Positions 8,350 through 52,408 of a DNA stretch of 64,000 bases are shown here, in pieces. Numbering within the stretch: position 1 is the stretch's first letter; each line of letters begins with the position of its first letter. The position numbers and the translations under genes are program-made. The notes under the pieces are model-generated. The model saw only the letters and a program-made list of their open reading frames with translations. It did no database searches and was not told the origin of the DNA. This DNA comes from an uncultured Clostridiaceae bacterium (GTDB lineage: Bacteria; Bacillota; Clostridia; TANB77; CAG-508). Location of the stretch: the NCBI GenBank assembly GCA_946493085.1, contig CAMMAC010000001.1, positions 2,593 to 66,592 on the forward strand, written 5' to 3'.

Positions 8350-8598
8350 ATGACAAACACAAATATCACAAATTTTAGAAAAGATATTTATGAATTATTA
8401 GAAACAACTATAAAGTATAATGAACCAATTAACGTTTCTACGAAAAATGGAAATGCAATCGTATTGTCTGAAGAAGATTACAATGGATTAATAGAAACTG
8501 TGAATTTATTAAATATACAAGGCATGAAAGAAAAATTAATAAAAGGAAAAGAAGAAAAAATAGAAAATTGTATTTCAGAAGAAGAGGTGGAATGGTAA
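8350..8598 (+). CDS. yefM: Type II antitoxin, Phd/YefM family
   Basis: 82 aa. The N-terminal ITNFRKDIYELLE...EPINVSTKNGNAIVLSEEDYNGLIETVNLL matches the YefM fold. Its stop overlaps the start of the toxin gene. Confidence 0.8.
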   Translation: MTNTNITNFRKDIYELLETTIKYNEPINVSTKNGNAIVLSEEDYNGLIETVNLLNIQGMKEKLIKGKEEKIENCISEEEVEW

Positions 8599-8864
8599 TG
8601 TATAAAGTAATTTATACAAAAATGGCAACAAAAGATATACCAAAATTGAAATCTAATCATTTAGATAAAAAAGCATTAGCGCTAATAGAAGTTATAAAGA
8701 ATAATCCATTCCAAACTCCACCACCATATGAAAAATTAGTAGGTGTTTTACAGGGACTATATTCCAGAAGAATAAATATAAAACATAGATTAATCTATCA
8801 AGTTTATGAGGAAGAAAAAATAGTTAAGATTATTAGTTTATGGACACACTATGAAAATATATAA
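8598..8864 (+). CDS. yoeB: Type II toxin, YoeB/Txe family (mRNA interferase)
   Basis: MYKVIYTKMATKDIPKL...LQGLYSRRINIKHRLIYQV...IISLWTHYE; YoeB-like RelE-superfamily toxin (family assignment from sequence resemblance). The RBS GAGGTGG lies 7 nt upstream of the ATG at 8598 (TAATG overlap with yefM). Confidence 0.8.
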   Translation: MYKVIYTKMATKDIPKLKSNHLDKKALALIEVIKNNPFQTPPPYEKLVGVLQGLYSRRINIKHRLIYQVYEEEKIVKIISLWTHYENI

Positions 8865-8935
8865 AATAAAAAAGTAGCAAAATTTCGAAAGAAGACGGCT
8901 ACTTTTTTATTTTCTTAATAAAAGTGTGATTATAA

Positions 8936-9074
8936 ATAGAAAATTACATAAAATAGATTGCTATAAGACAAGAATAAGTAGAAAATAATAAAAAGGTATA
9001 TTGAAATTAACCGAAAGGTAATATATAATAAAAGTATAGAGGATAAAAAACATAAGAAAAAGGAGAGGACAAGA
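8936..9074 (+). promoter_or_regulatory. Type-1 conserved leader of the variable family (copy A): upstream motif AAATTACATAAAATAGATTGC plus the promoter TTGAAA(9001-9006)-17-TATAAT(9024-9029)
   Basis: The same ~140-bp segment recurs at 9977, 11489, 12030, 12739 and, diverged, at 23078. It contains a near-consensus -35/-10 pair and an AGGAGAGGA RBS. Confidence 0.7.
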
Positions 9075-9884
9075 ATGAAAAAAGAGAATGGAATTACTAT
9101 GATAACGTTAGCAGTAACCATCATTGTACTAATTATACTAGCAGGAGTAAGTATCAATATGCTAGTAGGAGAGAATGGAATTATTACAATGGCACAAAAA
9201 GCCAAAGAAAATATAGAACTAGCACAAATAGAGGAAGAAAAACAATTAAATAATTTATATGGAGAATTAGTAAATGCAGGAGAAGGAATTTTTGATGATT
9301 CTATGGGAGATGCTATAGAAAAATTAGAAAATTTCAAAAAAATAATAGCAACAGCCATAACTAATGAGGGAGTAGCAACGTCCGAAACAGATACAGCAGA
9401 AACTATGTCAGAGAATATAGCAAAAATATTAGAAGAAAGAACAAAAGATGCCACAGCATCGGAGTCAGATATACTAGAAGGAAAAACAGCTTATATAAAA
9501 GGACAATTAGTAACAGGAACAAATAAGGGATATGATGTAGGATATAATGAAGGTTACGAAGCTGGAAAAAGTGGGAATGCTTTGACTTTTACAATAGCAA
9601 TGACAACAGCACCAAATATACCATCGGGAGCAGCAGCTTATCCAATACAAAATTTAAATATAGAAAATTACAGTACAATAACAGTTACAGGTAGTTTTTC
9701 TAGTCAATCAGATGGAGGTTCTTTTCAAATTTTAGCAGATGATAAGGTTATTTCAGATACAATAAGAAATAATTCTAGTATTAATATATCTTATGATATA
9801 TCTAATTATAGTAAACTTTCTCTTTACATATATGCAGGATATACTAGAGTTGTAAATGCCAATTTAAATGTACAAATACAATAA
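9075..9884 (+). CDS. Variable-family protein, copy A (intact): pilin-like N-terminal anchor, conserved ~150-aa N-module, unique beta-rich C-terminal domain
   Basis: MKKENGITMITLAVTIIVLIILAGVSINMLVGENGIITMAQKAKEN..., about 60-75% protein identity to copies E, F and D across the first ~150 aa (by-eye alignment of the ORF-track translations). The C-terminal GYDVGYNEGYEAGKSG... domain is unique. Confidence 0.75.
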   Translation: MKKENGITMITLAVTIIVLIILAGVSINMLVGENGIITMAQKAKENIELAQIEEEKQLNNLYGELVNAGEGIFDDSMGDAIEKLENFKKIIATAITNEGVATSETDTAETMSENIAKILEERTKDATASESDILEGKTAYIKGQLVTGTNKGYDVGYNEGYEAGKSGNALTFTIAMTTAPNIPSGAAAYPIQNLNIENYSTITVTGSFSSQSDGGSFQILADDKVISDTIRNNSSINISYDISNYSKLSLYIYAGYTRVVNANLNVQIQ

Positions 9885-9976
9885 TAATTTAAATAGAATA
9901 ATTTTTTAAAAGAAAGTAGCAGTCTTTATCTATAGATTGTTATTTTTTGACATTAAGAACTATAAAAACGATAAAT

Positions 9977-10077
9977 AAATTACATAAAATAAATTGCAAA
10001 ATAAAAGGAATAAATAGAAAATAAAATATAAGAATCGAGTCTTAGAAGTAAAAAACATAAAAAGAGGAGAAAAGGGA
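9977..10077 (+). promoter_or_regulatory. Type-1 leader remnant (copy B) lacking the -35/-10 block
   Basis: AAATTACATAAAATAAATTGC is present, but the TTGAAATTAACC...TATAAT segment is replaced by unrelated sequence. Confidence 0.5.
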
Positions 10078-10269
10078 ATGATTACAGAAAAAGGAATTAC
10101 AATGGTGGCTTTGGCAGTAACCATCATTGTACTAATTATACTAAGGAAATATAAATTGGAGTACAAATACGATAACAGCTATAGTAAATCGACTAGAATG
10201 TCCATTATATGTACAATTATTTACAATATTATAAAACAAAAGAATAGTATAATAGAAAAGAAAAAGTAG
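10078..10269 (+). pseudogene. Variable-family copy B: truncated remnant (only ~22 aa of the conserved N-terminus, then frame decay)
   Basis: MITEKGITMVALAVTIIVLIIL then unrelated residues. There is a 27-nt stretch identical to copy A (GCAGTAACCATCATTGTACTAATTATACTA). Confidence 0.65.
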
Positions 10270-10280
10270 TAATAATATCA

Positions 10281-11363
10281 CTACTTTTTTTCTTGTTTAA
10301 CGAAATTAGATTTTTTTATAGGAATTAAGAATAAGGCTCCTACTATAATAGGAAGGTAGAAAGTATAAATACGCCAAAATAAGATGGCTAAATTGATAGT
10401 TCCAGTTTTAAAAATAGATTGAAAGATAAGTAAAAATCCACCTTCTGCACCAAGACCAGCACCAGGAGTAGGAGTAATGGTCATAATCATTAATAAAAAG
10501 GCTTGTGCCGGAATAATTTGCCAATAGTTAATCCCAGAATTACCAAAAGCACGATATACCATATAAGTAATGGCATAATAGCATAAACTTTGCAGAGTTG
10601 CCCATATAAAAATTTGAAGAAGAATTTGCTTCTGGGTAAAGATAAATTTAAATTGATTACTAAAATGAATAATGCTATTAGTTACTTTTTCTTTCGCTTT
10701 ATTAAAATCTTTTATTATTTTTAATTTTGCCAAAAGTTTTACCCATGGTAAAGTAATTATAATAATGAGTTTCGGGTAAATTCCAGCAAATACAATAACC
10801 ACTACTAAAACAATATTAGCAACAAATCCTAAAATAGCGACCCATAGAAAATCTTGGAATAAATTCAGAAAAAAGGGTAATTCCCATAATACAACAATAA
10901 CTGTAAAAATTAATAAAGCTAATTGTGTTACAATGAATTTCATAGTTAAAATAGACATTGATTCACTAGCTCTTTTTCCTGTTTTGGTAAGAGCATAAGC
11001 CTGCATTGGCTGTCCACCAGAGGAAAATGGAGTTACATTATTAAATAACTGTCCTATCATATTTACTTTAATAGAATTTGTAAATTTTTGAGCGGGATAA
11101 AATTTTTTTAGTGGAATATGTAAGCACATAGTGTCGCAAAACCAAAGTCCAAGTAGAGCAAGAAGTCCCCAGCATACCCAAGTGTAATCTACTTGTTGTA
11201 ATACTAAAATAATATTATCTATACCATCTACCATAAACATATAAATTAATAAACCAATAAAAATAACTGCAATCAAAATAAAATTAAAAATAGTTACTTT
11301 TTTGCTAGTAGTTTTAATTTCTTGCTCTTCTGTTTCTATTTGAGAATTTTTATTGTCCTCCAT
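10281..11363 (-). CDS. Flippase-like / lysylphosphatidylglycerol-synthase-TM-domain (UPF0104) membrane protein
   Basis: 360 aa with about 8 TM helices. The pattern of conserved Gly/Pro/Trp positions (GQLFNNVTPFSSGGQPMQAYAL) is typical of the LPG_synthase_TM / flippase-like family. The RBS AGGAGGATT lies on the minus strand upstream. Confidence 0.7.
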   Translation of the reverse strand: MEDNKNSQIETEEQEIKTTSKKVTIFNFILIAVIFIGLLIYMFMVDGIDNIILVLQQVDYTWVCWGLLALLGLWFCDTMCLHIPLKKFYPAQKFTNSIKVNMIGQLFNNVTPFSSGGQPMQAYALTKTGKRASESMSILTMKFIVTQLALLIFTVIVVLWELPFFLNLFQDFLWVAILGFVANIVLVVVIVFAGIYPKLIIIITLPWVKLLAKLKIIKDFNKAKEKVTNSIIHFSNQFKFIFTQKQILLQIFIWATLQSLCYYAITYMVYRAFGNSGINYWQIIPAQAFLLMIMTITPTPGAGLGAEGGFLLIFQSIFKTGTINLAILFWRIYTFYLPIIVGALFLIPIKKSNFVKQEKK

Positions 11364-11488
11364 GTTATAGAATCCTCCTTTATTATCTTATTATTTATAT
11401 AAAAAAATAGAGAAAAAGTCAATCGAAATAAGAAAATCTTCATGAAATTTGAAAATACTGGGAAAAAATAAAATATAAGTATAAAAAT

Positions 11489-11559
11489 AAAATTACATAA
11501 AGTAAATTATAAAATGAAAAAATTGGTAGAAAATAATAAAGAAGAATATTGATGTTAAC
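11489..11559 (+). promoter_or_regulatory. Type-1 leader (copy C) with promoter TTGATG-17-CATAAT
   Basis: AAATTACATAAAGTAAATT motif plus the TTAACCAAAAAGTAATACATAAT promoter block. Confidence 0.5.
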
Positions 11560-11893
11560 CAAAAAGTAATACATAATATTTGATAATTTAAAGCAAGAAT
11601 TTCAAGATTTTAAAAAACAAATTGCAGAAGCATTAACCAATAAAGGTGTACAAACAGAAGAAACAGATTCTATAGAAAGCATAGTGGAGAATATTGGTAA
11701 GCAGGGTGGTAGTGGAATACAACGAATAAAAATAGGAAGTTCTTATAATGCTTCTACAGGTATTTTAACTATTTCTAGTACAAGTAATTCTGGACATTTT
11801 GATAAGGGAGATGGAAATGGAGGTATTATGTGGACAGAAGATTGGTCATGTAGTATTCAATTTGATGTTTATGCATTTATACCAAATGTATGA
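11560..11893 (+). pseudogene. Variable-family copy C: 5'-deleted copy (no start codon and no TM anchor) that retains the end of the conserved module fused to a unique C-terminal domain
   Basis: In-frame translation ...NLKQEFQDFKKQIAEALTNKGVQTEETDSIESIVENIGKQ aligns to LENFKKIIATAITNEGVATSETDTAETMSENIAKIL of copy A. The tail GSGIQRIKIGSSYNASTGILTISSTSNSGHF...WSCSIQFDVYAFIPNV is unique. Confidence 0.6.
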
Positions 11894-12029
11894 AACATGA
11901 TTTTTTAAATTAACCTCGAGTGATAAAGGAAAAATTTCTAGTCACTAGAGGTAATTTTTTATGCCTATTAGATATTACTAAATTACGAAGTAAGAAAAAA
12001 TTTATTAAAAAAGTAATAAGATAGTATGA

Positions 12030-12167
12030 AAATTACATAAAATAGATTGCTAAAAGAAAAAGTTAAATAGAAAATAAGTATATGAAAAGATTTAATATTA
12101 ACCAAAAGGTAATACATAAAAAGTATTAAAATAAAAGATAGGAAACATAAGAAAAAGGAGAAAAGCA
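12030..12167 (+). promoter_or_regulatory. Type-1 leader (copy D), promoter partly degraded (TTAATA / TACATA)
   Basis: AAATTACATAAAATAGATTGC is exact. The -35/-10 are weakened relative to copies A and E. Confidence 0.5.
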
Positions 12168-12652
12168 ATGAAGAGAGAAAATGGAATTACCATGATAACG
12201 TTAGCCGTAACCATTATTGTGTTAATTATCTTAGCAGGAGTAAGTATCAATATGTTGGTAGGAGATAATGGGATTATTACAATGGCGCAAAAAGCCAAGG
12301 AAAATATGGAACTAGCACAAATAGAAGAAGAGGAACAAATGAACAGTTTATATGAAGAATTAGCTAATGGGGCGAAGGAATTTTTGACGATTCTATGGGA
12401 GATGCTATAGAGAAATTAGAAAATTTTAGAAAGATAATAGCAACAGCTATAACGAATGAAGGAGTTGCTACAGCAGAAACAATGGCAGAGAATATTAGTA
12501 AAATATTAGAAGCAAGGACAAAAGATGTAACAGCTACAGCAGAAGATATAGCAGAAGGAAAAACAGCCTATGTAAATGGAGAAAAGATAGTAGGGACTGA
12601 AAAATATATTCATCTTATCCTAATACTGCAGGTATATATTATTGGAAATTAG
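12168..12652 (+). pseudogene. Variable-family copy D: frameshifted within the conserved module (two ORFs, 12168-12410 and 12395-12652), with the C-terminal domain missing
   Basis: MKRENGITMITLAVTIIVLIILAGVSINMLVGDNG... The frame breaks at ...EELANGAKEFLTILWEML and resumes as MGDAIEKLENFRKIIATAITNEGV.... It ends soon after DIAEGKTAYVNGEKIVGTEK. Confidence 0.7.
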
Positions 12653-12738
12653 AATACTAATCGAAATTAAAACTTTAGAAGGCAGAGAGAAATCTCTGTT
12701 TTATTTTTTGAGAAAAAAGAAAGTATAAAAATAAAAAG

Positions 12739-12880
12739 AAAATTACATAAAATTAATTGCATAGCAAAAGAAATAAATAGAAAATAAAATAAAGAAATGT
12801 TGAAATTAACCAAAAGATAAGATATAATAAAAGTATAAAGAATAGAAAAAATGGAAAACATAAGAAAAGGAGAAAACGTA
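12739..12880 (+). promoter_or_regulatory. Type-1 leader (copy E) with consensus TTGAAA(12799-12804)-17-TATAAT(12822-12827)
   Basis: Same architecture as the copy A leader. Confidence 0.7.
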
Positions 12881-13642
12881 ATGAAAAAAGAAAATGGAAT
12901 TACAATGATTACTTTAGCAGTGACGATAATTGTGTTAATTATATTAGCGGGAGTAAGTTTAAATATGACGGTAGGGGAAAGTGGAATTATCACTATGGCA
13001 CAGAAAGCAAAAGAAAACATGGAACTGGCAAAGGTAGAAGAAGAGGAACAGTTAAATAGTTTGTATGAAGAATTAGAAAAAGGAGGAGAAGGAATTTTCG
13101 ATGATTCTATGGCAGATGCTATAGAAAAACTAGAAAATTTTAGAAAGATAATAGCAACAGCTATAACGAATGAAGGAGTAAGTACAGCAAGCACAGATTC
13201 AGCAGAAACCATGGCAGAAAATATAGGTAAAATATTGCAGGAAAGAACCAAGGATGCAACTGCTATGGCGGATGATCTATCTAATGGAGTAACAGCCTAT
13301 GTAAATGGACAGAAAATAACAGGAAATGGAATGGATGTAAATAATAGTTATAATAATGGATATAATGTGGGGTATCAGGACGGAAAACAACAAAGTAACG
13401 TGAAGCAATATTCTATGTCCTTTAGTATAGGAATTAATACTACGCAAACGTATAATTTAGATAATTATGTGCAAGGAGGAAATTTATTAACTGCTTCTAT
13501 TACTTCTTGGTCAGAACCATATACAGTTAAAGCAACTTCGTTTCAATTAACGGTAAATGGAAATGTTGTTACAATTAAATATTCTAGTGGTGATGTTGGA
13601 TTTGCTGGTAGTGGTACTATCGTATTTTATTATTATGAATAG
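12881..13642 (+). CDS. Variable-family protein, copy E (intact)
   Basis: MKKENGITMITLAVTIIVLIILAGVSLNMTVGESGIITMAQKAKEN... The C-terminus YNNGYNVGYQDGKQQS...LTVNGNVVTIKYSSGDVGFAGSGTIVFYYYE is related to copy A only in the GY(D/N)VGY motif. The RBS AAAGGAGAAAA precedes the ATG at 12881. Confidence 0.75.
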   Translation: MKKENGITMITLAVTIIVLIILAGVSLNMTVGESGIITMAQKAKENMELAKVEEEEQLNSLYEELEKGGEGIFDDSMADAIEKLENFRKIIATAITNEGVSTASTDSAETMAENIGKILQERTKDATAMADDLSNGVTAYVNGQKITGNGMDVNNSYNNGYNVGYQDGKQQSNVKQYSMSFSIGINTTQTYNLDNYVQGGNLLTASITSWSEPYTVKATSFQLTVNGNVVTIKYSSGDVGFAGSGTIVFYYYE

Positions 13643-13743
13643 GAAAATACTATAATTTCTACAAAAAATCACCTTAGATTTTGTGCTAAAACAAGTTTAT
13701 TTTTGAATTGTTCAGATGAATAATATTAAAATAGAACTAAAAT

Positions 13744-21337: not shown

Positions 21338-21928
21338 ATGAAAAAGTGGTTTATGATAGGGCTAATAGGAACCATTATTTTAGCCGTTGTTTTAACAATT
21401 ACAGTGCAAATTATTCTAGAAGAAAATACACAGCAAGAAATTTATCAGCAAAGAGCAGAAGTGCAAGAGAAAGAAGAAAATAGAGAAATAGCAGAAAATA
21501 AATTAGCTATGACTAGCACTACAGGAGAAGATAAAATTTCTCCTAATGCAGTCATTTATTTTAAAACTTATTATGCAAGTTGTAAACATACAACAACAGA
21601 AACAATAGATGTACCAGAAGAGTTAGTAAATAAAACAAGAGAAGATGTAGCAGAAAAATATAAAGATTGGGATATAGGAGAATTTACAAATCAAGAAATT
21701 ACATTATATTGTGAGCAACAAGGCATATGTCCAGAACACTATATGATAAGAGAAAAAGATGGATATATAGCCATTTATCAAATAGGAGAAGACGGAACAG
21801 AAACATTAAAAGAAATGACAGGGATTGTTACCAATTATTTACCAGAAACAGACATATTAAGATTAGAAGAAGGAATTAAGGTAGTAGGAAAAGAAGAATT
21901 AAATGCAACCATAGAAGATTATGAATAG
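21338..21928 (+). CDS. Membrane-anchored hypothetical protein, possibly BofC-like
   Basis: N-terminal TM anchor. The soluble domain has no catalytic motifs. The functional assignment is weak. Confidence 0.4.
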   Translation: MKKWFMIGLIGTIILAVVLTITVQIILEENTQQEIYQQRAEVQEKEENREIAENKLAMTSTTGEDKISPNAVIYFKTYYASCKHTTTETIDVPEELVNKTREDVAEKYKDWDIGEFTNQEITLYCEQQGICPEHYMIREKDGYIAIYQIGEDGTETLKEMTGIVTNYLPETDILRLEEGIKVVGKEELNATIEDYE

Positions 21929-21978: not shown

Positions 21979-22012
21979 AAAAGTTAGTTCGTAACCGTGA
22001 ATAATGCTCACT

Positions 22013-22043
22013 GTCCCATTTAAATCAGGGATAAGTGGGACAT
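22013..22043 (+). repeat. REP-like repeat, partial copy (GTCCCATTTAAATCAGGGATAAGTGGGACATTTTT)
   Basis: Matches the right half of the 46682-46743 element. It sits immediately upstream of a type-2 leader. Confidence 0.65.
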
Positions 22044-22168
22044 TTTTAAAAATAAAGTCGAAAATTATGGAAATAAGTAACTACTAAAAAGCAAAAATAA
22101 AGAGTAAAGAAAAATAGAGAAACGATATAATCCTCTCTGTAAAATTAGATAGCAGGGAGGATAAAATT
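22044..22168 (+). promoter_or_regulatory. Type-2 conserved leader (copy F): GTCGAAAATTATGGAAATAAGTAAC...TATAAT followed by an SD-sequestering hairpin (22132-22160)
   Basis: CCTCTCTG pairs with CAGGGAGG (one G-U wobble), occluding the RBS GGGAGGA. The same architecture occurs at 22915-23010 and 46744-46862. Confidence 0.6.
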
Positions 22169-22906
22169 ATGCCAAAACAAAAGAGTGGAGAAGAAGGAAT
22201 TACTATGATAACTTTAGCAGTAACAATCGTAGTATTAATTATTTTGGCAGGAGTTAGTCTAAATGCAACTGTAGGAGAAAATGGAATTATCTCGCAGGCA
22301 CAAAAAGCAAGGGAGAATATAGAGATAGCAAGAGAAGAAGAAGAGATACAATTAAATAATTTGTATGAAGAATTAGCAAAGGGAGGAGAAGGGATTTTTG
22401 ATGATTCTATGACAGATGCCATAGAAAAATTAGAAAACTTTAGAAAAATAATAGCAACAGCCATAACAAATGAAGGAGTTACTACAGTAGAAACAGATAC
22501 AGCGGAAACAATGGCAGAAAATATTAGTAAAATATTACAAGAACGAACAAAAGATGCAACAGCAACAGCAGAAGATATAGCAGAGGGAAAGACTGCTTAT
22601 GTGAATGGGAATAAAGTAGTTGGAACAGCTCATAATAGTGATGAAATTACTTTTTCAACGTTGTTAGTAAATTCAAGTTCTAGTAAATGTCTTATTGTTC
22701 CTTTAAATAAAAATTATAAAAATCTATCTATAACAAATATTTCAGGAGGAACAGGAGGCACAGGAACTGCAACTGTATATTTAGATGAAGTAGATAGCGG
22801 AACTTTTTATGCGGGAATGCCAGTTCCAATTGAATATGATTTAACAGATGTAGAAGAACTAAAGATTACTGGAAATCAAGTTTTCTTTACTCTAACAATT
22901 TTATAG
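22169..22906 (+). CDS. Variable-family protein, copy F (intact): N-terminal extension MPKQKSGEE, then the conserved module and a unique C-terminal domain
   Basis: GITMITLAVTIVVLIILAGVSLNATVGENGIISQAQKAREN...DIAEGKTAYVNGNKVVGT, then a unique tail (...ISGGTGGTGTATVYLDEVDSGTFYAGMPVPIEYDL...). Confidence 0.75.
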   Translation: MPKQKSGEEGITMITLAVTIVVLIILAGVSLNATVGENGIISQAQKARENIEIAREEEEIQLNNLYEELAKGGEGIFDDSMTDAIEKLENFRKIIATAITNEGVTTVETDTAETMAENISKILQERTKDATATAEDIAEGKTAYVNGNKVVGTAHNSDEITFSTLLVNSSSSKCLIVPLNKNYKNLSITNISGGTGGTGTATVYLDEVDSGTFYAGMPVPIEYDLTDVEELKITGNQVFFTLTIL

Positions 22907-22914
22907 GATTATGG

Positions 22915-23010
22915 AAATAAGTATCCACTAAAAAGAGAAATAAAAAGGTAACAAAAAATAAAGAAAATATATAATCCTCCTTGAAATTAGAGAAATCAAG
23001 GAGGATAAAC
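22915..23010 (+). promoter_or_regulatory. Type-2 leader (remnant G) with a perfect 10-bp SD-sequestering stem (TCCTCCTTGA / TCAAGGAGGA)
   Basis: TATAAT at 22970-22975. The hairpin spans 22975-23006. Confidence 0.55.
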
Positions 23011-23061
23011 TATGAACAAACAAAAGCAACAAAAGAATAAACAAAGAAGAATCGCACGATA
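23011..23061 (+). pseudogene. Variable-family remnant G: 16-codon N-terminal stub (MNKQKQQKNKQRRIAR*), homologous to the start of copy I (MMQKQKNKQKGITLI...)
   Basis: Sequence similarity to the first codons of the 46863 gene. A stop codon replaces the TM anchor. Confidence 0.5.
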
Positions 23062-23214
23062 AGTTTATATAATAACAAAATAACATAAAACGAATTGTAG
23101 TTAAAAAAGAAATAAGAGAAAATAAAAATAATACTTGATAATAGCCAAAAGGTAATGTACAATAAAGGTATAAATGTGAAAGAAATGGAAAACATAAGAA
23201 GAAGGAGTAAAAAA

Positions 23215-23481
23215 ATGAAAAATAATACAGGAATAACGATGGTTTCGTTAGTAGTAACTATAATAGTGTTAATCATCTTGGCAGGAGTAAGTATTAATAT
23301 GCTAGTAGGGGATAATGGAATTATAACCTTAGCACAAAAGGCGAAAGAAAATACAGAATTGGCACAAATAGAAGAAGAAAAACAATTGAATAGTTTATAT
23401 GGAGAATTAGTAAATAGCGGTGATGGAATTTTTGATGATTCTAATGTAGAGGCAATAGAGAAGAAAATGCAATTATTATAG
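23215..23481 (+). pseudogene. Variable-family copy H: truncated after ~85 aa of the conserved module (diverged type-1 leader at 23078-23214)
   Basis: MKNNTGITMVSLVVTIIVLIILAGVSINMLVGDNGIITLAQKAKENTELAQIEEEKQLNSLYGELVNSGDGIFDDSNVEAIEKKMQLL*. Confidence 0.65.
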
Positions 23482-23483
23482 GA

Positions 23484-23642
23484 GCAGGGGCAATCAGTCG
23501 TGATTATAAAGGTTGGACAGGTTTTAATATAAGTTATACGAATGATACCGTAACAGTTACATTTGGTTTAGATGGTAGTAGAGTTGTAAATTCTGATGGA
23601 AATTGGAAGATTAGAGTTTGGTATCAAATTGCATCGAAATAA
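23484..23642 (+). pseudogene. Orphan C-terminal cassette fragment of the variable family (out of frame with copy H)
   Basis: Translation ...DYKGWTGFNISYTNDTVTVTFGLDGSRVVNSDGNWKIRVWYQIASK* is beta-rich and resembles the tails of copies A and E. Confidence 0.4.
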
Positions 23643-37959: not shown

Positions 37960-38304
37960 ATGGTAATAAAAAGAGGAGATATGTTCTATGCGGATTTAAG
38001 TCCTGTAGTAGGTTCAGAACAAGGAGGAATTAGACCGGTTATTATCATACAAAATGATATAGGAAATAAGCATAGTCCCACTGTAATTGCAGCAGCAATT
38101 ACCTCTCAGACAGGAAAAAATAAATTACCTACTCATATAGAAATAGGCTCACAAAATAATGGATTAAAGTCAGATTCGATTGTGCTCACAGAACAAATAC
38201 GTACAATTGATAAAAGTAGATTAAAAGAAAAAATTGGGCATATTGATGATGAAGTGGTAATGGAAAAAATTAATAATGCACTAGGTGTTAGTTTTGGTTT
38301 GTGA
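37960..38304 (+). CDS. mazF: MazF/PemK/EndoA-family type II toxin endoribonuclease
   Basis: MVIKRGDMFYADLSPVVGSEQGGIRPVIIIQNDIGNKHSPTVIAAAITSQ closely matches EndoA/MazF. Confidence 0.85.
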   Translation: MVIKRGDMFYADLSPVVGSEQGGIRPVIIIQNDIGNKHSPTVIAAAITSQTGKNKLPTHIEIGSQNNGLKSDSIVLTEQIRTIDKSRLKEKIGHIDDEVVMEKINNALGVSFGL

Positions 38305-44056: not shown

Positions 44057-46703
44057 ATGTGGCATACAAAAGGAATTTCTAAAGTAGAAGAAGAGCTTGG
44101 GACAAGTATTAGGCAGGGCTTATCTGGAAAAGAGGCAAAAGAAAGACTACAAAAGGAGGGACCAAATGAACTGACAAGCAAGAAAAAAGAATCCTTGCTA
44201 GTACGTTTTCTTAAACAATTTAACGACTTTATGATTATTATTTTAATTATAGCATCCATTATTTCAGCAGTAGTAGCAAGCATAGAGGGAAGCGGAGACT
44301 ATATGGATTCCATTATTATTATAGCCATCGTAATAGTGAATGCGATGATGGGAGTTTTACAAGAAGCAAAGGCAGAAAAAGCATTAGAGGCATTAAAGAA
44401 TATGACAGCACCTACGGCAAAAGTAAAAAGAGAGGGAAAGGTACAAACCATACCAGGAATAGAAGTAGTACCGGGAGACGTTATTCTTTTAGAAGCAGGA
44501 AATTACGTGCCAGCAGATGCTAGAATTATAAAAGCATCGAATTTAAAAATAGAAGAAGCTAGCCTTACAGGAGAAACGGTAGCAGTAGAAAAGCAAGAAG
44601 GAATCATTCAGGAAGAAACAATAAGCATAGGGGATATGTATAATATGGTATTCGCCTCTACTATAGTGGTGAACGGACATGGTGAGGCAATTGTAACCCA
44701 AACAGGGATGCATACAAAAGTGGGACAAATTGCTAATATGATTATGGAGGAAGAAGCTCCTCAAACACCAATTCAAAAGAAGTTAGCAGAAGTAGGAAAA
44801 GCCTTAGGAATAGCCTGCTTAGTAATATGCACTCTTATCTTTGTAATAGGGCTATTGAAACAAATATCTCCAATAGAAATGTTTATGACTTCTGTGGGAC
44901 TTGCTGTGGCAGCTATTCCAGAAGGGTTGCCAGCCATTGTTACAATAGTATTATCGATAGGTGTAACAAAAATGGCAAAGAAAAACAGTATTATTAGACA
45001 TCTACCAGCAGTAGAAACATTAGGTAGTAGTAGCGTTATTTGTTCAGATAAAACAGGAACATTAACTCAAAATAAAATGACAGTAAGAGAAGTGTTTACT
45101 ATGGGAAGCACAAAAGAAGAACTAGCCCTTCAGTTTGGAACTATGTGTAGTGATGTAGTAGCAGAAGAAAAAGAAGCAGGACAAGAATTAGTAGGAGAAG
45201 CAACAGAAATTGCTATTGTAAGAGGAGCCATAGAAAAAGGCATTCGAAAAGAAAAATTAGAGAAAGAAGCACCAAGAGTAGCAGATATCCCTTTTGATTC
45301 TAATAGAAAAAGAATGAGTACGATCCATGAAAAAGAAGGACAATATCAAATTGTATGTAAAGGAGCGCCAGATGTTTTATTAGAGAGATGCTCCTATTAT
45401 CAAGACGGAGAAAAAATAAGTAGCCTTACTCCTCACATAAAGGAACAAATAGAAAAACAGAATGAAAAAATGGCAGAAAATGCCCTTAGAGTAATTGCAG
45501 TTGCCTATAAAATGCAAAGCGTGTTACCAAACACAATAAAAAGCGAAGAAATAGAAAATGAGCTTATTTTTGTAGGATTAATAGGCATGATAGATCCTCC
45601 AAGAGAAGGCGTAAAAGAAGCGGTAGCTACTTGCAGAAAAGCAGGAATTAAAACCGTAATGATAACAGGTGACCATGTCATTACTGCCAAAGCCATTGCC
45701 AAAGAGTTAGGCATTTTGAAAAGTGGAGATAAAAGTATTACAGGAGCAGAATTAGAAAAAATATCGCAAAAAGAATTAGAAAAAAATATCATGGGATATT
45801 CTGTTTTTGCAAGAGTATCGCCAGAGCATAAAGTAAGAATTGTAAAAGCTTTTCAGAGTACAGGAGCAGTGGTAGCTATGACAGGAGATGGGGTAAATGA
45901 TGCGCCTGCACTAAAAAATGCAGATATCGGTATTGCAATGGGACAAAATGGCACAGATGTAGCAAAAAACGCGGCAGACATGATATTAGTAGATGATAAT
46001 TTTGTGACAATAGTAGGAGCGGTAAAGCAAGGAAGAAATATTTATGATAATATTAAAAAGGCAATCCATTTCTTAATTGCTACTAATATAGGAGAAATTG
46101 TTACGATTTTTATGGGATTAGTATTAGGATTAAAAACGCCTCTTCTTGCCATTCAGTTATTATGGATAAATTTAGTAACCGATTCTTTCCCAGCCATTGC
46201 ATTAGGACTAGAAAAACCAGAAAAAGATATTATGAGCAAAAAGCCTAGAGATGCCAAAAAAGGTATTTTTGCAGATGGATTATGGAGTAAGATTTTTGTA
46301 GAAGGTATCATGCTTGGTATGCTTACACTATTTGCTTTTAGTATAGGAAACTATCTATTTGGTTTAGAAGTGGGAAGAACAATGGCATTTGTATCATTAG
46401 GAATGTTAGAATTAATCCACAGCTTTAATATAAAAAGTGAAGAAAGTATTTTCAAAATGCGGATTTTTAGAAAACAAATATCTATTGGGAGCCTTTTTAT
46501 TAGGAGCGGCGTTACAAATAGGAGTTGTCGTTATTCCACCACTTGCACAAATCTTTGATGTAGTTCCACTAAATGGAATGCAATGGTTATATACCATAGG
46601 AATTTCGCTGTTACCAATTCCAATTATGGAATTACAGAAAAAATGGAATGAAATAAAATTTGGAAAAGTAGTATATGGGGTGTCCCATTCAAGTCAGGGT
46701 TAA
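44057..46703 (+). pseudogene. P-type (type IIA, Ca2+-like) cation ATPase interrupted by a frameshift near 46450
   Basis: DKTGTLT phosphorylation motif, TGDGVNDAPAL hinge, PEGLP in TM4. The final TM helices continue in another frame (ORF 46437-46703). Confidence 0.8.
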
Positions 46704-46743: not shown

Positions 46744-46862
46744 ACAAAGAAAAAAGTCGAAAATTATGGAAATAAGTAACCAGTAAAAAAGGAAAAGTAA
46801 AAGAGAAGAAAAAGCAAAGAAAGATATAATCCTCTTTATAAGAAAAAAGCAAGGAGGATAAG
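46744..46862 (+). promoter_or_regulatory. Type-2 leader (copy I) with TATAAT (46825-46830) and an SD-sequestering hairpin (46831-46858)
   Basis: CCTCTTT pairs with AAGGAGG(A) (includes a G-U wobble). Conserved block GTCGAAAATTATGGAAATAAGTAAC at 46756. Confidence 0.55.
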
Positions 46863-48608
46863 ATGATGCAAAAACAAAAGAATAAACAAAAAGGTATTAC
46901 ATTAATTGCATTAGTTGTAACAATTATCGTTTTAATTATACTAGCGGGGGTATCCATTAACATGTTAGTAGGAGATAATGGAATTATAACACAAGCACAG
47001 ATAGCAAAAGAAGAAACTGAACAAACACGCAAGGAGGAATTACAAGAATTAGCAACTTTAGAAACAGCTCTAGAAGAAGCTTCTGGGAATATTTATGTTA
47101 AAGAAGAAGGTGTAAATAAACCAAGGTTGACTACTGGAATGACACCAATTAAATTTATAGATCCCACAGATACAACTAAAGGAAGTGTTGTTATAACTAC
47201 AAGTGAGGATAAAGATTGGTATCAGTATGATGAAAAGAAATGGGCAAATGCCCAAACGGAAGATGGAAGCATGTGGGTATGGATACCAAGGTTTGCATAT
47301 AGAGTAAATGAGAGTACTAAAACTTTTGATGTTGTATTTTTAATAGGAACAACAGATACGTATTATGATAGAAATGGGCAAATACAAACAGCAAAACGTT
47401 GTACGAGTGAAGATGAATTAGTAGATACAAGCACAGGCTATACCGTGCATCCAGCCTTTACAGATGAAACAGACATCAACTTTAGAAACGGAGGATGGGA
47501 TAAAGAAATAACAGGTATATGGGTAGCTAAATTTGAGGCAGGCTATGCTAGTGGAAATAATGGTGCAGAAGTAGTAGCAAGTAGCGTGAACTATAGTCAA
47601 AGTAATGCATGGATAAGAAGTATAGAATTACATGGAAACACTACAACAGGCGATGGAAATGGAAATGCAAGAAACTGGTTAGATGGCATCTATGAAAGTA
47701 CAACAACAGCCATTAAATACCCTGTATTTCAACCAACAACCTATGGTATGAATTATATTAATATAAATGATGCTTATAATATAGCAAAAGTATTAACAGA
47801 GAATGGAAATATCTATGGCTTTAATGGAGCAGCAGACAGCCACTTAATGAAAAATAGTGAATGGGGAGCTTGTGCCTATCTATCCAAGAGTCAATATGGA
47901 TTAAATACAATAGACATAGCTATAAATAATATAACTTTAAATAGTGGAGCAAAACAAAGAACAGAAGCAGCAGGGCAAAATGAGGTAGATAGCGTATATG
48001 CAGTAACAGGCTGTACTACGGGAAATACAACAGGAGAAAAACAAACAACCATAGAAAATATCAATGCAACAACAGGGAATACGGCACTAGATGGAGTATA
48101 TACGTGGGATCAGTTAAATGGAATAAAAGCAAGTTGTACAGGAACTATTTATGGGATATATGATTTAAGTGGAGGTTTAGTGGAAAGAACAACAGGATAC
48201 GTAGCAAATGGAAAAAAAGAATTAAAAAATTATGGAGCATCTTTTACTTATGAAGATGATGTTTTAAAAACAGTTAGTACCAAATATGCAACTGTATATA
48301 TAAATAATAACACAACAGATAATGCTAGTGTAACGGATACACAAGAGCATTTAAATATAGCAAGTACGAATAACTGGCTAGCAAATAAATTAATCTATGG
48401 CGATGCCATCCGAGAGACATCTACACAAGGAACTGGCAATAATTCATGGTATGAAGATGACTCTTACTTCCCAGGACTTTACTATCCGTTTACTATCCGC
48501 GGCGGAAGTTTCAGAGGTATGGATGGACCTGGTCTATTTAATTTCAGCCGTACTAATGCTCCTAGCCATTATGGAGATGGATTTCGTGCAGTTGTAATTG
48601 TGTCGTAA
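46863..48608 (+). CDS. Variable-family protein, copy I (intact, 581 aa): pilin-like anchor plus short conserved module, large unique extracellular region, C-terminus with an FGE/C-type-lectin-like signature
   Basis: N-terminal MMQKQKNKQKGITLIALVVTIIVLIILAGVSINMLVGDNGIITQAQIAKEE. The C-terminal ...GLYYPFTIRGGSFRGMDGPGLFNFSRTNAPSHYGDGFRAVVIVS resembles the RGGSW...GFR ending of FGE-sulfatase / CLec-fold domains. Confidence 0.75.
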   Translation: MMQKQKNKQKGITLIALVVTIIVLIILAGVSINMLVGDNGIITQAQIAKEETEQTRKEELQELATLETALEEASGNIYVKEEGVNKPRLTTGMTPIKFIDPTDTTKGSVVITTSEDKDWYQYDEKKWANAQTEDGSMWVWIPRFAYRVNESTKTFDVVFLIGTTDTYYDRNGQIQTAKRCTSEDELVDTSTGYTVHPAFTDETDINFRNGGWDKEITGIWVAKFEAGYASGNNGAEVVASSVNYSQSNAWIRSIELHGNTTTGDGNGNARNWLDGIYESTTTAIKYPVFQPTTYGMNYININDAYNIAKVLTENGNIYGFNGAADSHLMKNSEWGACAYLSKSQYGLNTIDIAINNITLNSGAKQRTEAAGQNEVDSVYAVTGCTTGNTTGEKQTTIENINATTGNTALDGVYTWDQLNGIKASCTGTIYGIYDLSGGLVERTTGYVANGKKELKNYGASFTYEDDVLKTVSTKYATVYINNNTTDNASVTDTQEHLNIASTNNWLANKLIYGDAIRETSTQGTGNNSWYEDDSYFPGLYYPFTIRGGSFRGMDGPGLFNFSRTNAPSHYGDGFRAVVIVS

Positions 48609-48831
48609 ATGTTTCATGTAAATGAGCCTTGTGAAGTAATAAATAGAAAATTATTTAATCAGCATATAAAAATAGTAAGGTAATGGACAACCTTACTATT
48701 TTTGTTTCTCGCTAAAAATAATTATTCTTTAAAATTATTCTCTTCAACTCATTAAGAAAACATTCATAAAAATAGCATTGCATACTAAGAAAAAAAATGC
48801 TACAATGAGGCTAGAAGAAGAGAGGATTTTT

Positions 48832-51890: not shown

Positions 51891-51955
51891 TATATATACT
51901 ATAATTTTATAGATGACAAATGCGAATGTGTGCTGTTTCATATAGGAGGTATAAT

Positions 51956-52408
51956 ATGAGCAAATTATTTAAGGTATTTGTGACATTCTGTATGGTGACT
52001 GCTTTGGCAATCGGGGGATCCGTTCCCGCCATGGCTGCCGAAGGTGAGGCAACTAACACAGCACTGGAAGCTGTTTCTACGACTAAAATGGAGAGCCGGG
52101 CTGGAGCTCAGGTTGGCGGTATGTCTGGAACTTGTACCATTAAACCTGGATCCGTTATTGGAACGTGCTATGTTGGTACGGGGGCAAAAACTATTGAGGT
52201 TACCATTACTGGCGTAAGTGGATTTATTATTCTCCAGTTTGATAACCTGACTACTGGTGACCGTGTAAATTTGACAGCCGTTGGTGGACAAAAGGATTAT
52301 TCTCTCACGTATGCTTCCGCGTTGGATTCCGGCGATTGGCGGTGCTCCGTCTTGTCGTGTGCAAACAACGCATCGAATTGTAGTTTTGATATCGACTTTT
52401 ACAGATAA
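51956..52408 (+). CDS. Small secreted Cys-rich protein (150 aa; signal peptide, 6 Cys) with anomalously high GC (about 50%)
   Basis: Signal peptide MSKLFKVFVTFCMVTALAIGGSVPAMA/AEGE. RBS TAGGAGGT. Codon usage is rich in G/C at third positions, unlike the flanking genes. Confidence 0.65.
   Translation: MSKLFKVFVTFCMVTALAIGGSVPAMAAEGEATNTALEAVSTTKMESRAGAQVGGMSGTCTIKPGSVIGTCYVGTGAKTIEVTITGVSGFIILQFDNLTTGDRVNLTAVGGQKDYSLTYASALDSGDWRCSVLSCANNASNCSFDIDFYR

Follow-up and report, generated by a model that had tools for sequence, protein, structure and literature searches.

A lectin-fold protein from an uncultured gut Clostridia bacterium as a probable frozen member of a retroelement-diversified family

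Membrane-anchored proteins with a C-type-lectin (CLec) fold are the commonest class of cellular target of diversity-generating retroelements (DGRs), according to the survey by Roux et al. (bioRxiv 10.1101/2020.04.01.020958; PMC8144416). In Bacteroides, the tip adhesins of type V pili are DGR targets with a C-terminal CLec variable region, and the element includes bAvd and the MutS-like protein Msl (bioRxiv 10.1101/2024.11.15.621889). Binding modules are also found on the modular pilins of Streptococcus sanguinis, where PilB carries a vWA module and PilC a lectin module (PMC8179133, PMC9934059). Here, we describe a gene for a 581-residue protein in a 64-kb stretch of an uncultured Clostridiaceae genome (GCA_946493085.1, contig CAMMAC010000001.1, positions 2,593 to 66,592), hereafter called the window. 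The protein belongs to a family that is the target of a DGR encoding a reverse transcriptase (RT), bAvd, and Msl. It is itself probably a membrane-held, lectin-fold ligand binder or adhesin of fixed specificity at the cell surface, representing a frozen variant of that DGR-target family.

The open reading frame (ORF) was found where a sequence-only reading of the window had placed it, with the length given there. The exact 581-residue sequence is present in a public protein collection (P0271), as is a protein 99% identical to it. The C-terminus quoted in that reading agrees exactly (...FTIRGGSFRGMDGPGLFNFSRTNAPSHYGDGFRAVVIVS), and the Thr/Gly/Asn-rich stretches to which it pointed were recovered as HGNTTTGDGNGN, TGCTTGNTTGEKQTTIENINATTGNT, and NNNTTDNASVTDT. 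The central motif had been misquoted as QKHSMWVWIPRFAYR and actually reads ...TEDGSMWVWIPRFAYRV / EDGSMWVWIPRFAYR. The two features on which the fold assignment turns are as follows.

46863..48608, forward strand: coding sequence, 581 amino acids plus stop.
47106..48605, forward strand: ectodomain (residues 82-581), predicted to have a C-type-lectin fold of the formylglycine-generating enzyme (FGE) subtype with large Thr/Gly/Asn-rich insertions.

The sequence-only reading had seen an FGE-sulfatase or CLec-like signature in the C-terminus, and this proposal stood by fold and family profile while failing by Pfam on the protein itself. The profile search that it suggested was negative, with no FGE-sulfatase (PF03781) or lectin match to the 581-residue protein at E <= 10. 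The NCBIfam scan of the protein gave no match, and a single-sequence phmmer search against the PDB returned only noise. Among 41 diverse relatives, five weakly touch PF03781 (best E 1.3e-4). An AlphaFold2 model built on 77 close homologues (63-77% identity) was of low confidence, with a predicted local distance difference test score (pLDDT) of 43. A second model, built on a diverse alignment of 109 sequences (35-77% identity), reached a pLDDT of 96.3 and a predicted TM-score (pTM) of 0.96 over residues 75-581. The structural check that had also been suggested came out in favor of the proposal, since this second model matches solely FGE-type CLec structures in the PDB. The top 21 Foldseek matches are all of this type, comprising TaqVP, FGE, and PorK structures (probability 0.85-1.0), and the next match has E = 0.38. 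The best match is TaqVP, the DGR variable protein of Thermus aquaticus (E 5.7e-7, probability 1.0), and the FGE matches range from E 4.4e-4 to 1e-2. In addition, a family profile searched against PDB sequences finds TaqVP at E = 0.0016, in an alignment that passes through the HLMKNSEWGAVAYL and GIYDLSGGxWE motifs, and SUMF2 at E = 0.038. We consider the assignment of the ectodomain to the FGE-subtype CLec fold sound as a model-based prediction.

A fold of this kind also allows the protein to be read as an enzyme of the FGE/EgtB/OvoA superfamily, acting in formylglycine generation or as a sulfoxide synthase. The similarity to FGE structures, a weak match to OvoA (Foldseek rank 37), and the SUMF2 sequence match all point in this direction, yet we regard such a role as extremely improbable. 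By sequence reading, residues 540-581 contain no cysteine, the only cysteines of the protein being C180, C337, C384, and C425, and the catalytic cysteine pair of human FGE lies in the C-terminal segment. Lacking the catalytic cysteines of FGE, the ectodomain would therefore be a binding scaffold and not an enzyme, and FGE-type catalysis appears excluded on this reading. Moreover, TaqVP, the closest structure, is a DGR variable protein and not an enzyme, and the domain is predicted to be extracytoplasmic. Relatives are hypervariable in the homologous segment, which could not be so if it held a conserved active site.

The family to which the protein belongs is very large, multi-copy, and without Pfam annotation, and it occurs in metagenome-assembled genomes (MAGs) of gut Clostridia. 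A word-indexed search gave at least 7,298 matches, and an exhaustive search gave 2,988 clusters at 50% identity. We count at least six copies in one MAG and observe tandem copies in others. When 29 related loci were searched for imperfect copies of the 3' ends of their family genes, three of them (L007, L009, and L015) were found to carry a copy of about 155 nt, located 180-400 nt downstream of the stop codon. Of the mismatches between this template repeat (TR) and the variable region (VR) of the gene, 10/10, 12/13, and 12/14 in the three pairs occur where the template has an adenine, and the variable template codons of the relatives are AAY. Genes for an RT (RVT_1), a bAvd (PF22296), and a small MutS-domain-I (MutS_I) protein lie beside the template on the opposite strand. 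The last of these belongs to the known Msl class of accessory proteins (Wu et al. 2018, PMC5758913). The complete DGR cassettes, in which the template is on the target's strand and the RT, bAvd, and Msl genes are convergent, are located as follows.

L007, 8613-11010: complete DGR cassette.
L009/L030, 11928-14308: complete DGR cassette.
L015, 11872-14238: complete DGR cassette.

The 581-residue protein is 56-67% identical over its full length to the members linked to these elements, and an Msl-bAvd-RT DGR thus has this family as its variable (target) proteins. In the 90% identity cluster of the L015 target (P0279-P0293), the 15 listed members are identical over their first 525 residues and display 15 C-terminal haplotypes, with all 19 variable columns inside residues 530-569. 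A single body carrying 15 VR haplotypes means that the element is active in nature on this family, and the cluster constitutes a data set on the amino acid spectrum generated by its DGR. Two further candidates were set aside. An upstream tandem copy at L007, considered as a second live target, is frameshifted and was not counted as functional; 15 of its 21 mismatches to the template fall on A and are thus adenine biased. A long tblastn match at L008, considered as a TR, proved to be the start of a neighboring family gene.

Two features of the 3' end of the gene in the window correspond to the diversified segment of these relatives.

48465..48578, forward strand: VR equivalent (residues 535-572), by homology with the DGR VR in relatives.
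48579..48608, forward strand: apparently decayed 3' end resembling an initiation of mutagenic homing (IMH) site, GGATTTCGTGCAGTTGTAATTGTGTCGTAA, where relatives and the TR have GGTTTCCGTGCGGTCGTGGTCGTGTCGTAG.

This end of the gene retains signs of past diversification. The L007 DGR comes from MAG E0_LS__bin212, which is of the same species as the window and serves as the sister genome in what follows. At the 13 positions where the sister-genome template has AAY codons, the window gene has NNY in 11, against a background frequency of third-position pyrimidines (Y3) of 0.43 (p = 0.0026), and the GC content of its last 150 nt is 0.44, compared to 0.35 for the whole gene. Both the NNY footprint and the GC-rich 3' end fit descent from a diversified ancestor. 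The VR equivalent is also the most variable segment among the 77 relatives.

The copy in the window now looks static. The remark of the sequence-only reading that the same fold is used by DGR variable proteins extends to active targets among the relatives, and it does not extend to this copy, which has neither a TR nor an RT in the window. Its statement that no RT is present in the window was borne out: tblastn with the RT, Avd, and Msl of the relatives' DGRs found none of the three in the window, and Pfam scans of all large window ORFs returned housekeeping genes only, with no RT or Avd. Its suggested search for a template repeat of the 3' end, run within the window, likewise found no repeat of positions 48300-48608. 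The IMH-like end matches the TR of the sister genome (used as the reference in place of a TR of the window genome's own) at 23 of 30 positions, and all seven differences are changes from G or C to A or T, at an end that is invariant or nearly so among the sister MAG's copies. At non-A positions, the window copy is 72% identical to the sister TR, compared to 87-100% for the likely targets of the sister MAG. Across seven strain variants (97-100% identical), we observe two co-inherited changes in the VR, S549G and R551I, against about 17 elsewhere. The cluster of the positional orthologue in the sister MAG (at L011) is static as well, and an exact-match scan of JGI metagenomes with the window's 3' end gave no hits, either to a TR or to other copies. 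We judge the window copy likely to be a non-diversifying, frozen paralogue of the DGR-target family, which would have lost its targeting by a DGR.

Several points weigh against this interpretation and are best considered together. Only the 64-kb window of the genome was seen, so that a DGR with the cognate template could sit elsewhere. The sister MAG does carry a DGR, and targeting in trans is therefore possible in the lineage; in this MAG, a number of paralogues that are not adjacent to the DGR have diverged from the L007 template with a bias toward adenines. Seven variants are a small sample for calling stasis, and both S549G and R551I lie on DGR-variable codons. Owing to insertions that total about 200 residues of the domain, the TM-scores given by Foldseek are modest (0.3-0.49). 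Finally, the surface location and the ligand binding are inferred from architecture and analogy.

The first of these points lead to the alternative that a DGR elsewhere in the genome still acts on the window copy as a remote (trans) target, with its tip still undergoing mutagenic retrohoming. DGRs with several targets are known (Wu et al. 2018, PMC5758913), the non-adjacent paralogues of the sister MAG retain 87-95% identity to the TR at non-A positions and differ from it at about half of the A positions, and the NNY footprint and elevated GC content persist in the window's 3' end. Nevertheless, we find this alternative improbable. The VR is almost identical in seven variants that differ at about 17 positions of the body, which is the opposite of the pattern at the active L015 target. 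In addition, the apparent erosion of the IMH-like end (7/30) and the low non-A identity to the sister TR argue against ongoing retrohoming, as do the lack of a TR in the window, the unmatched 3' end in the JGI metagenomes, and the lack of a DGR at the tuf-adjacent site. The L007 and L009 DGR islands lie directly after tuf, and the relatives' DGR loci are chromosomal, situated between tuf and minD or NlpC-ComEC. Unlike in L007 and L009/L030, tuf in the window is directly followed by a two-component system, with no DGR island.

The L007 contig joins tuf to minD via its DGR island, and in the window 30 kb of housekeeping genes lie between the two (2924-33487). This difference reflects a rearrangement on a large scale or else chimerism of the MAG contig.

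Like L007, locus L011 is from MAG E0_LS__bin212, and it is syntenic with positions 42.7-57.8 kb of the window, with flanks that are 90-98% identical in DNA. The family genes at the two loci share only 79.7% DNA identity and 77% protein identity, and the region upstream of the gene differs, the upstream element described below being absent from L011. Such conserved flanks around a diverged gene and upstream region indicate that a promoter-plus-gene cassette was replaced in one lineage. Recent mosaic recombination was considered and rejected, as a sliding search in 180-nt segments turned up none with more than 89% identity to a sampled paralogue; the 77% identity of the orthologues therefore does not stem from a recent patchwork of the sampled copies. 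Two further differences between the sites were observed. A 558-residue AAA-ATPase_like plus PDDEXK_9 gene lies beside the family genes at L011 (8743-10419) and L007 (2236-3912) and is absent at the window site. Conversely, window positions 51920-52408 encode a 162-residue ORF with a signal-peptide-like N-terminus and no Pfam match, for which tblastn found no match in the syntenic L011.

The genomic setting also bears on whether the protein could be a receptor-binding (tail-fiber) protein of prophage or phage origin. Foldseek matches in BFVD are phage SUMF-like and tail collar fiber proteins (E 4e-9 to 1e-3), the best in that database, and many gut DGRs are phage-borne (Roux et al., PMC8144416). 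We nonetheless hold this origin to be very improbable: tblastn against 50,697 phage genomes gave no match, the flanking genes are housekeeping ones (SMC, Ca-ATPase, and hydrolase) that are syntenic in the sister genome, the gene is monocistronic, its product has a membrane helix at the N-terminus, and relatives carry their DGR loci on the chromosome.

How the protein may be held at the cell surface is suggested by its N-terminus, which comprises three parts.

46863..46895, forward strand: basic leader MMQKQKNKQKG (residues 1-11), ending in a nearly invariant Gly.
46896..46973, forward strand: hydrophobic helix ITLIALVVTIIVLIILAGVSINMLVG (residues 12-37), resembling the N-terminal half of a pilin alpha1 helix (alpha1-N), with Ala at position +5.
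46974..47105, forward strand: charged helical stalk or linker (residues 38-81), with a helix at residues 41-73 that appears only in the first, pLDDT-43 model.

The layout of the leader (MMQKQKNKQKG | ITLIALVVTIIVLIILAGVSI, a short basic leader with a terminal Gly followed by hydrophobic residues) resembles a class III (prepilin) signal, with a putative cleavage site. In an alignment of 77 relatives, T13 and L14 are invariant and G11 is kept by 90% or more of the sequences; the stalk or linker varies among relatives. Searched against the PDB, the family profile finds the N-termini of the pilins Geopilin (best E = 2e-4), MshA, PilE1, and PilA. The Pfam N_methyl model scores the 581-residue protein at 17.3 bits, below its cut-off of 21.2, and touches 22 of 41 relatives; NCBIfam pilin models match the protein only at E > 0.1. 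None of 83 relatives has Glu at position +5 (A 50, V 12, S 9, T 6, I 5, L 1, E 0). Subunits located at the tip, for example GspK, typically lack Glu5.

On these data, a true modular type IV pilin, cleaved after Gly11 and acting as a lectin-fold tip adhesin on a type IV or Com-type filament, is a possible though unlikely form of display. It concerns only the mode of display and is compatible with membership in the DGR family. The conserved leader Gly, the run of about 21 hydrophobic residues, the long helix, and the matches to pilin N-termini and N_methyl favor it, the lack of Glu5 would suit a tip subunit of the GspK kind, and the lectin-bearing pilins of S. sanguinis (PMC8179133, PMC9934059) provide a precedent. 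ComEC is the sole competence-related gene in the window. Against it stand the absence of Glu5 in all 83 relatives, the sub-threshold N_methyl score, and the unmatched NCBIfam pilin models. No pilin globular module was recognized, the confident model covering residues 75-581. Pfam scans found no pilus ATPase, platform protein, or prepilin peptidase in the window, and no filament machinery or prepilin peptidase was found in the 20-kb neighborhoods L030 and L031. Tandem arrays of at least seven large "tip" subunits would also be unusual for pilins. A plain N-terminal membrane anchor fits the N-terminal data equally well. Of the suggestion in the sequence-only reading that a pilin-like anchor carrying a lectin-like tip would make an adhesin, the anchor thus gained support from the leader Gly, the helix, and the profile match, and it lost support through the missing Glu5, the N_methyl score, and the missing machinery; by analogy, such an adhesin is plausible.

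Taken as a frozen member of a DGR-target family, the protein may work as follows. The basic leader and the pilin-like hydrophobic helix would hold it in the membrane, or pass it through, and the charged helical stalk would carry an elaborated FGE-subtype CLec ectodomain of about 500 residues. In the DGR-linked members, adenine-specific mutagenic retrohoming would rewrite some 13-19 codons within the last ~45 residues, which would form the ligand-binding face. The window copy would have descended from such a diversified gene, its adjacent template and RT gone, its IMH-like end eroded, and its tip constant across strains. It would then most likely be a surface ligand binder or adhesin of fixed specificity, one "frozen" variant of a repertoire.

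Several family genes occur together in many genomes, some of them in tandem arrays. At L031 (7977-21734; ENA OLIV22 scaffold_118, 172 kb), at least seven full-length family genes (576-577 residues) stand in tandem with spacers of about 295 nt and no RT within 10 kb. Within this array, the bodies are 88-95% identical but the last 48 residues only 65-77%, and the genes differ at DGR-variable positions. Giant relatives also occur (P0121, with 4,340 residues, P0196, P0205, and P0234), which contain up to 11-12 repeats of the same ectodomain module. Within the window, the sequence-only reading had called the 581-residue protein the largest member of its family, and it does top the roughly seven ORFs that have a pilin-like N-terminus of about 70 residues in common. 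The others start at 9075, 10078, 12168, 12851, 22169, and 23155.

9075-9884: paralogue of 269 amino acids, having only the pilin-like leader and helical stalk in common with the 581-residue protein.
10078-10269: truncated paralogue of the pilin-like leader family.
12168-12410 plus 12395-12652: frameshifted paralogue of the same leader family.
12851-13642: paralogue of 263 amino acids, same leader family.
22169-22906: paralogue of 245 amino acids, same leader family.
23155-23481: paralogue of 108 amino acids, same leader family.

The stalk or linker is present in these other window paralogues too. Their C-terminal domains (window 8900-13700 and 22000-23500) differ and have no Pfam match, and most of them have a conserved upstream DNA element of about 150 nt (AAAATTACATAAAATAGATTGC...). 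Distinctive in the family as a whole are the Glu5-less, pilin-like leader, which is also found on unrelated ectodomains, and heavy paralogy with tandem arrays.

The gene has expression signals of its own, listed below, and is flanked by a P-type Ca-ATPase gene on one side and an alpha/beta hydrolase gene on the other, from which it follows that it is a stand-alone unit; it is monocistronic.

46763..46830, forward strand: conserved promoter-like upstream element, common to window paralogues and the L001, L002, and L008 family genes.
46852..46857, forward strand: ribosome-binding site AGGAGG, 5 nt before the ATG (direct sequence reading).
48666..48705, forward strand: terminator-like hairpin with a 16-bp stem and 8-nt loop, followed by a U-run.

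The upstream element consists of ATTATGGAAATAAGTAACCAG at 46763-46783, an A-rich spacer, and GATATAAT with a -10 TATAAT at 46825-46830, and it presumably acts as a promoter of the gene. The same arrangement (ATTATGGAAATAAGTAACCAC, A-rich spacer, GATATAAT, and then AGGAGG) recurs at window positions 22064-22165 and 22908-23009. No Rfam family reaches its gathering score anywhere in the window, and the element corresponds to no known RNA. The hairpin has a delta-G of -17.5 kcal/mol (z = -5.7 relative to shuffled sequences) and is not listed by a consensus terminator scan.

In the neighboring Ca-ATPase gene (window 44057-46703), the frame breaks near 46440 and resumes in another frame (46437-46703). 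A short ORF at L011 (6330-6614) overlaps the end of the ATPase gene there and suggests the same split, which could be a real frameshift or pseudogene or an assembly error common to both. Elsewhere in the window, toxin-antitoxin genes were found at 8350-8864 (Phd/YefM antitoxin and YoeB/ParE-type toxin) and 37960-38304 (MazF/PemK toxin). Directly after ComEC, positions 21338-21928 encode a 196-residue protein with a BofC C-terminal domain, a sporulation-associated family, and the gene order NlpC/P60-ComEC-BofC is conserved in L030.

Through this analysis, a very large protein family of uncultured human-gut Clostridia that lacks Pfam annotation gains a fold and a probable role. Most copies per genome are static, which makes the family a natural setting in which hypermutated forms of one scaffold can be compared with frozen ones. 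Furthermore, a lectin-fold C-terminus, NNY-rich codons, and a GC-rich 3' end together can mark a DGR-family gene even with no RT in view. Knowledge of how DGRs work is unchanged, and the window copy is an ordinary member, probably of fixed specificity.

Compared with known systems, the family is a new, very large, and unannotated member of an already known class of DGR targets. The nearest structure is that of TaqVP (PDB 5VF4; related to TvpA of Treponema denticola), which has the FGE-subtype CLec fold predicted here. In the profile alignment, HLMKNSEWGAVAYL...GIYDLSGGxWE pairs with HLMTNAEWAAVALL...GIADLVGNVWEW, both proteins have the variable region in the C-terminal ~45 residues and end in GFR, and the window protein's relatives are diversified by the same adenine-specific mechanism. 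Nevertheless, sequence identity is merely 14-15%, the window ectodomain is about 120 residues longer and carries Thr/Gly/Asn-rich insertions, and the window protein adds a pilin-like helix and a stalk. The family is also massively multi-copy, and the window copy is static, without a TR or RT.

FGE itself (human SUMF1/SUMF2 and the Streptomyces coelicolor and T. curvata enzymes; PF03781) has the same overall fold and the same order of motifs, namely, the beta-hairpin WVWIPRFAY, the NSEWG helix, YDLSGG-xE, RGGS-F, and GFR. The window protein differs in having no PF03781 match and no C-terminal catalytic Cys and in its predicted anchoring at the surface, and its relatives show hypervariability in the segment that corresponds by homology to the FGE active site.

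The modular pilins PilB and PilC of S. sanguinis are similar in placing a grafted binding module after a hydrophobic helix and a leader like a class III signal. Canonical pilins match IPR012902/N_methyl and are encoded in pil operons, whereas the window protein has a sub-threshold N_methyl score, no Glu5, no recognizable globular module, and no pil genes nearby. The membrane-bound cellular targets catalogued by Roux et al. likewise combine a transmembrane or signal segment at the N-terminus with a CLec VR at the C-terminus, with proposed binding of extracellular substrates; a pilin-like leader common to non-CLec paralogues is not described in the text searched.

With the type V pilus tip adhesins of Bacteroides, the family has in common an occurrence in gut bacteria, a DGR with bAvd and Msl, and surface- or pilus-associated targets. 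The differences are the phylum, the type V pili as opposed to a type-IV-pilin-like leader lacking Glu5, the lack of linked pilus genes, and the many static paralogues and tandem arrays. It is a speculative and rather doubtful proposition that the family is the Gram-positive counterpart of these adhesins, combining a DGR-hypermutated tip with an archive of frozen variants. In such a counterpart, Glu5-less pilin-like subunits would be exported or assembled by a prepilin-type route, and a chromosomal Msl-Avd-RT DGR would hypermutate their tip. Frozen tips would then be archived as tandem arrays or dispersed copies and exchanged as promoter-plus-gene cassettes. If this is true, uncultured gut Clostridia would vary their surface recognition through a two-tier system of hypermutation and paralogue repertoire.

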